This document shows positions 2,807-5,660 of a DNA stretch of 5,660 nt, piece by piece. This DNA is from Candidatus Odinarchaeota archaeon (GTDB taxonomy: Archaea > Asgardarchaeota > Odinarchaeia > Odinarchaeales > Odinarchaeaceae), in assembly GCA_038826135.1 (NCBI GenBank), contig JAWBON010000075.1, positions 1 through 5,660 of the forward strand, written 5' to 3'. The notes below the pieces were generated by a model that did no database searches, was not told the DNA's origin, and saw only the letters and a list, made by a program, of their open reading frames with translations. Each line of letters begins with the position of its first letter. Within the stretch, counting starts at the first letter, position 1. The position numbers and the translations under genes are program-made.

Positions 2807-2814
2807 TTTATATT
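2807..2814 (+). promoter_or_regulatory. Putative TATA box of tRNA-Leu
   Basis: TTTATATT ending 26 nt upstream of the mature tRNA 5' end (2840), typical archaeal spacing, immediately after the longin stop codon. Confidence 0.55.
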
Positions 2815-2872
2815 AGGTTTAGAATCAAAAATATTAAGCGCGGGGGTTCCCGAGCCAGGTCTAAGGGGCAGG

Positions 2873-2899
2873 ATCTTGGCAGATATACCAGGAGGCTTA
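2873..2899 (+). other. tRNA-Leu intron 1, position 30/31, 27 nt
   Basis: Bulge GG^A; intron helix TCTTGG:CCAGGA; central helix GGCA:GGCT (one A-G mismatch); bulge TA^A; outer helix AGG:CTT. A 31/32 register gives the same mature RNA. Confidence 0.85.
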
Positions 2900-2906
2900 A
2901 CTTAGG

Positions 2907-2928
2907 ACCCTGAAGACCCGGGTATGAT
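2907..2928 (+). other. tRNA-Leu intron 2, canonical 37/38, 22 nt
   Basis: Bulge GG^A; intron helix CCC:GGG; central helix CTTA:TATG (one T-T mismatch); bulge AT^A; outer helix is the anticodon stem. Confidence 0.88.
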
Positions 2929-2937
2929 ATCCTGTGC

Positions 2938-2955
2938 AAGGCTAAACCTGCAGAT
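2938..2955 (+). other. tRNA-Leu intron 3, 5' strand of the long variable arm (after T44-G-C), 18 nt
   Basis: Bulge GC^A; intron helix AGG:CCT; central helix CTGT:GCAG (4 bp including one G-U); bulge AT^T; outer pair C40:G2957. Confidence 0.85.
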
Positions 2956-2960
2956 TGTAG

Positions 2961-2987
2961 AGATTAACAGTTTTGTTAATCCAGTAA
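2961..2987 (+). other. tRNA-Leu intron 4, tip of the variable arm (after the GTAG loop), 27 nt; 5' boundary +/-1 nt
   Basis: 8-bp intron helix GATTAACA:TGTTAATC; central helix GCTG:CAGT (after intron 3 removal); 3' bulge AA^A; outer pairs T44:G and G43:C. The 5' bulge is 4 nt (TAG^A), and the boundary was chosen to restore the consensus GTAG loop. Confidence 0.8.
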
Positions 2988-3110
2988 AGCTTCATGGGTT
3001 CAAATCCCATCCCCCGCACCACTTAGTTTGATAAGGTCAATAATTAAATAATTTAGATTACCCGCCTTAACTTAAAATAATAAAAGGCTTAATTATTTTA
3101 ACAGCTTGCT

Positions 3111-3119: not shown

Positions 3120-4157
3120 TTGAAAATACTGCATCTAAGCCATACTGGTTTAGAATACGACAGCCGGATTAAGAAGGCTATGAACACTTGTATAAAACAG
3201 GGGTTTGAATGCAGTTTCCATGATTTAGGATACTCTAATAATTTCAATAACATAGTTATCTCTGCGCATATACCGTATTTCTGGGGTAAAATAAAAGGCA
3301 GAGTTGCAAAAATAATTGGAGAATTTAAACCTGACATTGTACACGCTCATGACATTTACGCTGCTAAAATATGTCAAGAGCTGGAGGCGCCGTTTGTTTT
3401 CGACTCGCATGAAAACTGGTTAAAACCACCTAAACATCCGTATAAGAATCTTCTCCTAAGATATATTAAACATAAAGGTTTGGATAAGTTTTCAAACTGG
3501 TGTAAAGAGATTATATCTGAAACTCCTACATTAACAGTTAATGAAACCATTCTTGAATTATATAAACAATATAGTAGACAAGTATATCTACTACCGAACT
3601 ATATTACACTGGAAGAGTCTAAGAATATTAATTTTAAGTCTAAGACGTCAAGTGTATCATATGTTTATGTTGGCAATGATTATCCTAATCGAAACTCTTT
3701 TAGAAATATAGATCGCTTAGTGAAATTGTTTTTAACCGGTAAATATGGAAGACTGACTCTAGTTACTAATAAGACTCCTAATCTTAATGAATATGTTTTA
3801 ACACAAAAGTTTATGGAACATACAGAGCTTTTAGATTATCTTACCCAGTTTATTGTGGGCTTATTATACTATGAGCCACACCCTGATCATCATTATTTTT
3901 TAGCTAACAAATTTAGTGAATACGCTCATTCAAGTCTCTGCGTATTATACACTAATAGTTTGACAAATGTTTCTAGGATAATAGGTGATCTAGGTATAGG
4001 AGTGGAGCCTGAAGAGCTTGAAGCTACTTTAAAAAATCTGAGAGAACAGAGAGAGCACTTAGTAGATAAAGGTGAGAAGACTAGGAGATTTGCTGTTAAA
4101 CATTTAATATGGGAGTTATACGAGAATAATATCTTAGAAGCTTATAAGCGGGTTTAA
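3120..4157 (+). CDS. Divergent GT4-like glycosyltransferase, 345 aa
   Basis: MKILHLS start, FKPDIVHAHD, FVFDSHE, YVYVG, and NKFSEYAHSSL resembling the NK-x-x-EY motif of GT4 enzymes. The C-terminal domain is short and divergent. Confidence 0.8.
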   Translation: MKILHLSHTGLEYDSRIKKAMNTCIKQGFECSFHDLGYSNNFNNIVISAHIPYFWGKIKGRVAKIIGEFKPDIVHAHDIYAAKICQELEAPFVFDSHENWLKPPKHPYKNLLLRYIKHKGLDKFSNWCKEIISETPTLTVNETILELYKQYSRQVYLLPNYITLEESKNINFKSKTSSVSYVYVGNDYPNRNSFRNIDRLVKLFLTGKYGRLTLVTNKTPNLNEYVLTQKFMEHTELLDYLTQFIVGLLYYEPHPDHHYFLANKFSEYAHSSLCVLYTNSLTNVSRIIGDLGIGVEPEELEATLKNLREQREHLVDKGEKTRRFAVKHLIWELYENNILEAYKRV

Positions 4158-5239
4158 TTTGGTGAATTATTAACTGAATGGTTTAAATATTCTTTAAGTA
4201 TCTGTGAGATTTTTCTAGAAGCATTTCCTTGGAATATATTTCTCCTCAACGTCTCTGGCTGAAAACTTTTAACTTTATCTAGTATTTGATTTTTATCAGT
4301 ACCGACCAATATATTCCAGCCGGCTTTAACGGTTTCAACCCATTCTGTGCGTTCTCTTAAAGTGATACAGGGGGTGCCTAACAAATATGCTTCCTTTTGC
4401 ATCCCCCCTGAGTCTGTTAATATTTTCTCAGCGTTTTTTTCAAGAACCAGCATGTCGAAGTATCCCACTGGGGAGGTTACTAAAATTTTTTCAGATAATT
4501 GATTAATGACACCTTGTTTTTCAAGTATTTTTCTTGTTCGAGGGTGACAGATGAATACCAGATTCGGTATTTTTTTAAAAGCTTCTATGATACTTTTTAA
4601 TCTTTCAGGATGATCTGTGTTTTCAGCACGGTGAAGAGTGGCTAGAATATAGGATTTAGAGGATAAATGTAATTCTTCAAGTATGTGGGATTTTTGCTCA
4701 GCTAATTTTAAGTTTTCTTTAATGCTGTCAACCATTACATCCCCGACTTTAAACACATTGTTTTTTATTCCCTCTTTTTTTAAGTTGAGAACTGATAGTT
4801 TAGTTGGGCAAAATAGTATATCTGAGCAGTGATCTGTTAACACTCGATTTATTTCCTCAGGCATTTCCTTGTCAAAACATCTTAACCCAGCTTCTACATG
4901 AGCTGTTCTAATACCCGATTTACGTGAAGCTAGGGCTCCGCCTAAAGTTGAATTAGTGTCACCGTATACTATAACAAGGTCGGGTTTTTCTTTAAATAAA
5001 ACCTCTTCTGTTCTTTTCACTATTTCACCCACCTGGTAGCCGTGGCTTCCTGAGCCGACTCCGAGATGATAATCTGGATCCGGAATATTCAATTCATCGA
5101 AGAATATTTTATCCATTTCATAATCATAGTGTTGACCTGTATGAATTATCAACTGGGAGAAGGATTTACCAAGTTCTTTGAATAGAGGGGCTAATTTTAT
5201 AAAATTTGGTCTAGCACCGACAATAGAAGCTATCCTCAT
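4154..5239 (-). CDS. wecB: UDP-GlcNAc 2-epimerase family protein (non-hydrolysing), WbpI-like signature
   Basis: GARPNFIK, HTGQHYD, GDTNST, HVEAGLR, PEEINR, TLHRAEN, HPRT, DSGGMQKEA and TLRERTEWVE. ATG at 5239 is preferred over TTG at 5248 because it aligns with the family N-terminus. Confidence 0.95.
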   Translation of the reverse strand: MRIASIVGARPNFIKLAPLFKELGKSFSQLIIHTGQHYDYEMDKIFFDELNIPDPDYHLGVGSGSHGYQVGEIVKRTEEVLFKEKPDLVIVYGDTNSTLGGALASRKSGIRTAHVEAGLRCFDKEMPEEINRVLTDHCSDILFCPTKLSVLNLKKEGIKNNVFKVGDVMVDSIKENLKLAEQKSHILEELHLSSKSYILATLHRAENTDHPERLKSIIEAFKKIPNLVFICHPRTRKILEKQGVINQLSEKILVTSPVGYFDMLVLEKNAEKILTDSGGMQKEAYLLGTPCITLRERTEWVETVKAGWNILVGTDKNQILDKVKSFQPETLRRNIFQGNASRKISQILKEYLNHSVNNSPN

Positions 5240-5260
5240 ATAAATCAACCGTATTTCTAA

Positions 5261-5660
5261 TTAACTGGGGTTTATTTTAATTTCTAGAGTAAAACTCTCA
5301 AACACCATATCTGCTAATCTGGGTTCCAAGTAGCTTAATCCCATGGCTTCAATCTCTTTTTTAGAATAAAGCTCGTCGAAAACGTAGACGTTGAATCCTT
5401 TGTCTCTAAGTATTTCAGCTATCTTCATGTTTCTACTATAATGGGTGCTTTTAACACCTTTCCTGAAGGTGATTCCGTTTATGCATATTTTAACTTCATT
5501 TAAAGGCTTATTTATTTTAAGAGCGTTCTGTAAGATGTTGTTAACCCAGTAGTAAGCCATTTCATCATTTATTTCTCTGGCTGTTTTAAGAAGATGTGAA
5601 TAATCGTAATATCCCAGTCTCTCCATTTCCTTTATCAGAAACCAGGGGTAGTATGGTATG
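5261..5660 (-). CDS. UDP-glucose/GDP-mannose dehydrogenase family (WecC-like) protein, C-terminal part; 5' end is outside the window
   Basis: The frame is open upstream of the ORF-track Met: ...IPYYPWFLIKEMERLG..., matching the GHCIPxDPxFL active-site segment. It continues with AREIND and a UDP-binding-domain-like KICINGITFRKGVK...VYVFDEL. Confidence 0.85.
   Translation of the reverse strand, partial: IPYYPWFLIKEMERLGYYDYSHLLKTAREINDEMAYYWVNNILQNALKINKPLNEVKICINGITFRKGVKSTHYSRNMKIAEILRDKGFNVYVFDELYSKKEIEAMGLSYLEPRLADMVFESFTLEIKINPS

Follow-up and report, generated by a model that had tools for sequence, protein, structure and literature searches.

The 5,660-nt contig JAWBON010000075.1 of a Candidatus Odinarchaeota archaeon (the window) carries a gene for tRNA-Leu(UAG) that appears to be split into five exons by four introns, each predicted to lie in a motif of bulge-helix-bulge (BHB) form (Table 1). 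The gene (2840-3021) begins with an acceptor strand and a D arm, and its 3' part consists of a T arm, the complementary acceptor strand, A73 and an encoded CCA; some 95 extra bases separate these two parts. An earlier note on this locus, made from the sequence alone, had read overlapping BHBs as an ordered splicing cascade, with intron 1 leaving before intron 2 and intron 3 before intron 4, and had suggested that repeated rounds of cutting, ligation and refolding could act as a maturation checkpoint. Our analysis upheld the exclusion of neighbouring motifs and favoured the order of introns 1 and 2, but did not support the order of introns 3 and 4 or the checkpoint.

In its default mode, ARAGORN missed the unspliced gene and called no tRNA in the window, and Rfam matched the T arm alone (2993-3010). 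Removal of the four introns in silico restored a canonical cloverleaf: the spliced product is a type II tRNA of 87/88 nt, which ARAGORN in default mode called tRNA-Leu(tag). Its variable region reads U-GCU-GUA(G)-AGC-UUC, A73 lies at 3018 and the anticodon is UAG, all as in a type II tRNA-Leu.

Table 1. Features of the tRNA-Leu(UAG) gene and of its predicted BHB motifs (positions in the window).
Feature	Position	Strand	Description
tRNA-Leu(UAG) gene	2840-3021	+	182 nt; five exons, four introns; 3' CCA encoded
Putative archaeal TATA box TTTATATTA	2807-2815	+	centre ~29 nt 5' of the tRNA 5' end; read from sequence
Exon 1	2840-2872	+	acceptor 5' strand, D arm, G26, anticodon-stem positions 27-30
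Intron 1	2873-2899	+	27 nt, position 30/31; 3-bp outer helix, 3/4 central helix, 6-bp hairpin
Exon 2	2900-2906	+	7 nt, ACTTAGG: A31, C32, U33, anticodon UAG, G37
Intron 2	2907-2928	+	22 nt, canonical position 37/38; relaxed BHB, hairpin CCC:GGG
Exon 3	2929-2937	+	9 nt: A38, anticodon-stem 3' strand UCCUG, U44, first two bases of the variable arm
Intron 3	2938-2955	+	18 nt, variable arm; HBh'-type BHB, central helix on C41-U44
Exon 4	2956-2960	+	TGTAG, 5 nt (4 nt if cut after A2959); variable-arm stem base and loop
Intron 4	2961-2987	+	27 nt (28 nt from 2960), variable loop; 4-nt 5' bulge, 7-bp hairpin
Exon 5	2988-3021	+	variable-arm 3' strand, T arm, acceptor 3' strand, A73, CCA
BHB1 outer helix	2864-66 : 2901-03	+	AGG:CTT
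BHB1 central helix	2867-70 : 2894-97	+	GGC(A):(G)GCT, A.G mismatch 2870/2894
BHB1 intron hairpin	2874-79 : 2888-93	+	6 bp
BHB2 outer helix	2869-72 + 2900 : 2930-34	+	CAGG + A : TCCTG, the anticodon stem, split by intron 1
BHB2 central helix	2901-04 : 2923-26	+	CTTA:TATG, 3/4, U.U mismatch; intron hairpin CCC:GGG
BHB3 central helix	2932-35 : 2950-53	+	CTGT:GCAG, 4/4; hairpin AGG:CCT; outer helix 1 bp only
BHB4 central helix	2936-37 + 2956-57 : 2982-85	+	G2936 C2937 + T2956 G2957 : CAGT, bridging the intron 3 junction
BHB4 outer helix	2934-35 : 2989-90	+	T2935.G2989, G2934:C2990; 2 bp
BHB4 5' bulge	2958-61	+	TAGA, 4 nt; intron hairpin 7 bp
Alternative BHB4 helix before intron 3 removal	2954-57 : CAGT	+	ATTG:CAGT, lent by the 3' end of intron 3

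The intron-exon structure was compared across an ortholog set of four genomes, each from a species of the genus and this one included; the three others hold a full-length ortholog at 87-89% identity. All four introns are retained in the four species. Variable alignment columns number 0 of 88 in the exons and 28 of 101 in the introns (Fisher p = 5e-9), with exon 1 the same throughout and exons 2 and 3 free of variation, and where the orthologs differ by indels, these are in hairpin loops (introns 1, 3 and 4). The hairpin of intron 1 and the hairpin loop of intron 3 also vary in sequence. Upstream of the gene, the ATTTATAT core of the putative TATA box is kept in all four; TTTATATTA would have a promoter role.

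In the sister genus of the same order (three genomes, G004-G006; loci L008, L039 and L040), the anticodon arm of Leu(UAG) is uninterrupted, reading CAGGA-CTTAGGA-TCCTG, and is identical to the arm predicted here after removal of introns 1 and 2. The sole intron of the sister-genus gene is a variable-loop intron after GTAG that is homologous to intron 4 and that also occurs in the paralogs. A single variable-loop intron was seen in the sister-genus Leu(CAG) genes (L041-L043) as well. BLAST matches of the paralogous Leu genes stop at 2873 and restart exactly at 2988, the outer exon borders, with 100% identity to exon 5 from 2988 on. Within this genome, the 30/31 site is also occupied in the paralog Leu(UAA), by an intron whose central helix is perfect and whose outer helix is likewise AGG:CTT. 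The paralog Leu(GAG) is interrupted twice, by a strict 37/38 intron and, at the variable-arm site of intron 3, by an intron that also uses the CTGT:GCAG helix; in Leu(CAG) there is the variable-loop intron only. The spliced variable region of Leu(UAG), TGCTGTAGAGCTTC, is identical to that of Leu(CAG), and the pattern U-NNN-GUAG-NNN-UUC is common to the paralogs and the sister genus. As judged from orthologs, sister genus and paralogs, the four-intron structure is real and well supported, and intron 4, the variable-loop intron, is apparently old. Introns 1-3 occur in the Odinarchaeum genus and not in the sister genus, which would reflect either gains here or losses there; a recent gain in one genus is the evident reading of the sequences.

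We regard as highly improbable both a pseudogene and a different architecture with fewer introns, for instance one in which a 50-nt intron covers introns 3 and 4 or the variable arm is natively long. With the -i option ARAGORN does offer a single 81-nt intron, but the anticodon stem of that model is almost unpaired and we rejected it as implausible. A single deletion of 2938-2987 is still called Leu by ARAGORN, yet its variable region would be 9 nt long and armless, which is the case in none of the Leu paralogs and orthologs, whereas the TGTAG micro-exon restores the variable region of Leu(CAG). The 2939-2949 hairpin was likewise rejected as a native long variable arm, as it has indels among species while the exons are invariant. 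Against a dead gene, no other Leu(UAG) gene was found among the Leu-like matches in this genome, and this copy is therefore probably needed.

A standard BHB consists of two 3-nt bulges on opposite strands with a 4-bp helix between them and is cut on each strand after the second bulge base. Intron 3 follows this strict rule fully (4/4 pairs, both bulges 3 nt). Intron 1 has 3/4 pairs, its A.G mismatch being present in every ortholog; across orthologs, intron 2 pairs at 2-3 of 4 positions, as the 3' strand of its central helix differs among them and only C32:G and U34:R are conserved; and intron 4 has 4/4 pairs, yet a 4-nt 5' bulge. Introns 1, 2 and 4 have relaxed BHB forms such as are known for (alpha-beta)2 enzymes, by which they may be cleaved. 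A geometry scan returned nH 3, h 3 and h' 6 for intron 1 (2872->2899) and nH 4, h 1 and h' 3 for intron 3 (2937->2955), and the local table for BHB2 read 3/1/3 before and 3/5/3 after removal of intron 1. Alternative registers were discarded: at 31/32 the central helix of intron 1 fails, and at 38/39 intron 2 has, by hand, a 3/4 central helix and no flanking helices. With 4 nt in its 5' bulge, intron 4 has a 5' cut that can be placed only to within 1 nt. A ruler of two bases from the central helix places the cut after A2959 and leaves the loop GUA, whereas a count from the hairpin, together with homology to the paralogs and the sister genus, places it after G2960 and leaves the loop GUAG and a 5-nt exon. 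We have provisionally placed it after G2960. A loose BHB scan of the 182-nt gene gave 81 candidates; BHB-like motifs are so common here that counting them is uninformative by itself, and it is the spliced product and the comparative evidence that lift the four-intron structure above chance.

The footprint of a BHB takes in some 6 or more bases of exon upstream of the 5' cut, and beyond the 3' cut it needs 2 or more. Neighbouring motifs overlap in this gene because its internal exons (7, 9 and 4-5 nt) are shorter than that footprint; the overlap is an automatic outcome of the exon lengths and no independent signal. Base-partner conflicts between the BHBs were tabulated by program. BHB1 and BHB2 share bases 2869-72 and 2900-03, BHB2 and BHB3 share 2931-34, and BHB3 shares 2934-37 and 2956-57 with BHB4 and 2954-57 with the alternative BHB4. 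Zero bases are shared between BHB1 and BHB3, between BHB1 and BHB4, and between BHB2 and the alternative BHB4. Two neighbouring BHBs never fit one secondary structure. For cuts at adjacent introns, a switch of the precursor from one conformation to another is therefore necessary, and the refolding that the earlier note had called for is supported for these pairs.

The particular contacts on which that proposal was built are also present. In its numbering, C32-T34 corresponds to 2901-2903 and C41-T44 to 2932-2935. Bases 2901-2903 serve both the outer helix of intron 1 and the central helix of intron 2; the outer helix of intron 2 is the anticodon stem (2869-72 and A2900 with 2930-34) and is contiguous only once intron 1 is gone; and the central helix of intron 3 (CTGT, 2932-35) competes with that stem through the shared bases 2931-34, so that introns 2 and 3 are, as claimed, not cleavable in one conformation. 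The helices of intron 4 across the intron 3 junction and the alternative ATTG:CAGT helix could both be found in the sequence. BHB1 has a further clash, with the D stem (3' strand, 2864-67), which the earlier note did not mention. Conflict between a 37/38 intron and a variable-arm intron is seen again in Leu(GAG) and in the tRNA-Glu gene of the window. This second interrupted tRNA gene, at 344-471 on the minus strand (Rfam tRNA, 36.6 bits), reads as a two-intron tRNA-Glu(UUC), of which the 37/38 intron is ~29 nt long and the one in the variable region ~20 nt.

We then modelled the order of splicing with ViennaRNA for 15 intron-retention states in each of the four orthologs. The cost of a BHB was the free energy with the motif forced (central-helix pairs and contiguous flanking helices formed, bulges unpaired) minus that of the unconstrained ensemble, and a toy model set the rate of each removal proportional to its Boltzmann weight. 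BHB2 cost 13.7-21.5 kcal/mol with intron 1 present and 7.6-15.4 kcal/mol without it, a drop of 5-8 kcal/mol in 4/4 orthologs. The cost of BHB3 rose by 2-5.6 kcal/mol once intron 2 was removed, which fits the competition for C41-U44. For BHB4 in this species, the cost was 2.0 kcal/mol in the precursor, where the ATTG:CAGT helix makes it the cheapest of the motifs, and 3.6 kcal/mol after removal of intron 3; across the orthologs it was 2.0-6.7 kcal/mol before and 3.6-4.6 kcal/mol after. Position 2955 is G in the three congeners, which places a G.G mismatch in the alternative helix and costs it one pair, and even there the gain from removal of intron 3 was only 0.4-2.4 kcal/mol. Removal of the upstream intron thus gained 5-8 kcal/mol for intron 2, whereas the range for intron 4 was -1.6 to +2.4 kcal/mol. 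The outer helix of BHB2 and the perfect central helix of BHB4 are contiguous only after the upstream intron has gone; before that, BHB2 can still be drawn in a degenerate form and BHB4 with its substitute helix. In the toy model, P(1 before 2) was ~1 and P(3 before 4) was <=0.05 across the four orthologs; intron 2 came last in 3/4 and intron 4 preceded intron 3 in 4/4. At 70 C the results were similar.

By this crude model, removal of intron 1 before intron 2 is favoured in every ortholog, and this order is reasonable because the central helix of BHB2 is degenerate and the motif leans on the anticodon stem, which is broken by intron 1. The companion claim, that intron 3 must leave before intron 4, is not required by the model, as the substitute helix makes BHB4 cheaper in the precursor of this species than after intron 3 removal, and intron 4 is placed ahead of intron 3 in the congeners too.

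The host encodes the enzymes expected for BHB introns, a splicing endonuclease and an RtcB ligase. In its genome (G000), matches to the EndA domain (PF01974) lie at C45:5827-6087 and, at contig ends, at C72:2-247 and C48:1-135. The genome has at least two EndA genes (two or three, as two of the matches are cut by contig ends), which fits an (alpha-beta)2 enzyme. [quoted passage not shown] The RtcB gene (PF01139; C16:2586-5357, L034:97-1500) is one open frame of 995 aa. This frame holds a 468-aa insert with matches to an intein splicing domain and a LAGLIDADG homing endonuclease.

We consider it likely that the locus encodes a functional Odinarchaeum tRNA-Leu(UAG) that has accumulated four BHB introns of the EndA/RtcB type and is matured stepwise in a partial order. 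The pre-tRNA would be unable to offer neighbouring introns to the endonuclease at once and would mature by repeated rounds of folding, cutting, ligation and refolding, while non-neighbouring introns (1+3, 1+4 and 2+4) could be presented together. Intron 1 would leave before intron 2, and the degenerate canonical intron 2 would tend to be late. Introns 3 and 4 would be free relative to each other: intron 3 would have split the ancestral central helix of BHB4, but intron 4 would need no prior removal of intron 3 because the 3' end of intron 3 itself supplies a substitute helix. Exclusion would also keep the introns on either side of a micro-exon from being cut simultaneously. A double cut before ligation would release a micro-exon of 4-9 nt held by only one or two base pairs, which would be lost at hot-spring temperature; the sequencing runs in which the window occurs are hot-spring metagenomes. 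Such protection of the micro-exons is likely a by-product.

Several points weigh against this interpretation. The mature form, the intermediates and their order are predictions from sequence and model, and the four orthologs are close kin (87-89% identical), so that conservation of the intron helices carries little weight. BHB1 (A.G), BHB2 (U.U) and BHB4 (4-nt bulge) depart from the strict motif, and both their cleavage and the cut sites are assumed. The thermodynamic model leaves out the enzyme, co-transcriptional folding, base modification and growth temperature, and the minimum-energy fold of the precursor holds no complete BHB. The model also discriminates poorly: perfect BHBs of the paralogs, which must be spliced, cost 1.9-12.9 kcal/mol. 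After these controls we dropped the free-RNA model as a predictor and used it for differences within the gene only; enzyme capture and co-transcriptional folding clearly matter for splicing. Apparent joints in contigs from four hot-spring runs proved to be cross-matches to Leu genes, paralogous or foreign, in which other letters separate the two sides; they show nothing of intermediates and speak neither for nor against expression.

The same controls bear on the idea that there is no meaningful order, in which a broad-specificity (alpha-beta)2 EndA captures any transient relaxed BHB and the introns are removed essentially at random. All modelled BHB states are minor (p <= 0.05) and the controls span a wide range of costs, so enzyme capture must dominate, and both the L1 loop of Asgard EndA (PMC5829648) and the cleavability of HBh' and hBH motifs (PMC4090602, PMC4033280) accord with such capture. 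We nevertheless think random removal unlikely. With intron 1 present, BHB2 has a contiguous outer helix of 1 bp, a degenerate central helix and the cost of 13.7-21.5 kcal/mol given above, which makes it a poor substrate by any published criterion, and reverse-transcription PCR (RT-PCR) in Cyanidioschyzon merolae, the only system so examined, showed an order even for independent BHBs (PMC3728597). A fully obligatory cascade (1 before 2, 3 before 4, ligation between cuts), selected as a maturation checkpoint, seems to us quite improbable. It draws on the mutual exclusion of neighbouring BHBs, on the perfect helix and 2-bp outer helix that BHB4 acquires only after removal of intron 3, and on the G.G mismatch of the substitute helix in 3/4 orthologs, and a review has suggested sequential processing as quality control for disrupted tRNAs (PMC3978253). 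However, the substitute helix of this species pairs at 4/4 positions and no BHB of the precursor is cheaper than the one formed with it, the toy model removes intron 4 before intron 3 in all four orthologs, and the overlap is forced by exon length, which makes a selective explanation unnecessary. The sister-genus Leu(UAG) works with one intron, so this tRNA needs no checkpoint, and the same overlap of 37/38 and variable-arm introns recurs in Leu(GAG) and the Glu gene of the window. The maturation checkpoint of the earlier note is in this light speculation: intron spacing accounts for the overlap, and the sister genus matures the tRNA with a single intron. It is similarly doubtful, and in our estimate a shade more so, that neighbour exclusion in Odinarchaeum is a selected safety device that enforces strictly alternating cutting, ligation and refolding, prevents release of the micro-exons and provides an EndA-RtcB-coupled checkpoint for CUA/CUG decoding. 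If it were, maturation of the only tRNA-Leu(UAG) would hang on EndA and RtcB acting together, a built-in kinetic checkpoint or point of regulation.

For intron 3, the sequence offers a candidate source. Over its full length and in register, intron 3 is identical at 15/18 positions to the 37/38 intron of Leu(GAG) (G000:C3:7352-7369), and among the differences are the two bases by which its central helix is retuned for the new position. A single further 18-mer of the genome (2 x 1.26 Mb) matches intron 3 at 15/18 positions; it lies on C18 in apparent coding sequence, and we took it as chance. The match to Leu(GAG) suggests that intron 3 arose by intron duplication or transposition between tRNA genes, a process described for Thermoproteales as cited in PMC4033280. 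A short BLAST search of the genome found no further copies of introns 1, 2 or 4.

ARAGORN -i listed only 31 tRNA genes in the whole genome, most with an "intron" of odd position or length and three called "Stop(tta)", which suggests many mis-parsed multi-intron tRNA genes. The longest gene in this listing is Leu(UAG) (182 nt), followed by a Trp gene of 171 nt. In the window, the tRNA genes lie inside a sugar-modification cluster (646-1869, 3120-4157, 4154-5248 and 5261-5626) that comprises two family-4 glycosyltransferases, a UDP-GlcNAc 2-epimerase and a fragment of a UDP-glucose/GDP-mannose dehydrogenase.

Nested introns, of which one is excised before the next BHB can form, are known from archaeal tRNA genes as these are reviewed in PMC8450103, PMC3728597 and PMC3978253. 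Soma et al (2013) set their red alga against "nested" archaeal introns whose last BHB forms only after the others have been processed, for which they cite Sugahara (2007) and Tocchini-Valentini (2009), and also raise quality control by sequential processing (PMC3728597, PMC3978253). Our comparison with the Thermoproteales (Sugahara et al, 2007, RNA 13:671; Tocchini-Valentini et al, 2009, PNAS 106:20246) rests on how citing papers summarise both. By those summaries (PMC3978253, PMC3728597, PMC8450103), the nested pre-tRNAs of Thermoproteales share with this gene closely packed BHB introns at non-canonical positions, relaxed motifs and an (alpha-beta)2-type EndA. They differ in that the host here is an Asgard archaeon and not a crenarchaeote, that all three neighbouring pairs clash and the last intron has a substitute helix from the preceding one, and that there are four introns, compared with the maximum of three per archaeal tRNA gene given in reviews (PMC4033280, 2014; PMC8450103, 2021).

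Four-intron tRNA genes have, however, been reported from other Asgard archaea. Introns occur in 92-95% of the tRNA genes of Atabeyarchaeia and Freyarchaeia, with several in over half of them, and Supplementary Data 4 of Valentin-Alvarado et al (2024) gives four-intron genes for Freyarchaeia Arg-TCT and Ile2-CAT and, by R2DT, for Leu-GAG and Atabeyarchaeia Trp-CCA (PMC11291895). Those genes likewise have short exons between introns (~8-9 nt), but the class here is Odinarchaeia and the tRNA is Leu-UAG, and their table gives coordinates only, without an analysis of BHB overlap, order or gain (PMC11291895). In the eukaryotic red alga C. merolae, the BHB at 37/38 is always processed last (PMC3728597), as the 37/38 intron 2 is in the toy model for 3/4 orthologs; there, however, the BHBs are independent and non-overlapping and the order was measured by RT-PCR, whereas the order here is modelled only. 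The Leu(UAG) gene extends a known archaeal pattern and is not a new mechanism, and the picture of tRNA splicing is unchanged. Specific to this locus are the Odinarchaeia host, a clash between every pair of neighbours along the gene, the substitute helix that intron 3 supplies and what is evidently a recent three-intron gain.

With four relaxed BHBs, three micro-exons and an intron whose 3' end replaces a disrupted helix, the 182-nt transcript is a compact natural test substrate. Together with recombinant Asgard EndA and RtcB, it could show the limits of BHB recognition, the ruler by which a 4-nt bulge is cut, and whether cleavage and ligation have to take turns. The evident recent gain of three introns relative to a one-intron sister genus, and an intron clearly related to one at the canonical position of a paralog, are both relevant to the spread of tRNA introns within the archaea that are closest to eukaryotes.

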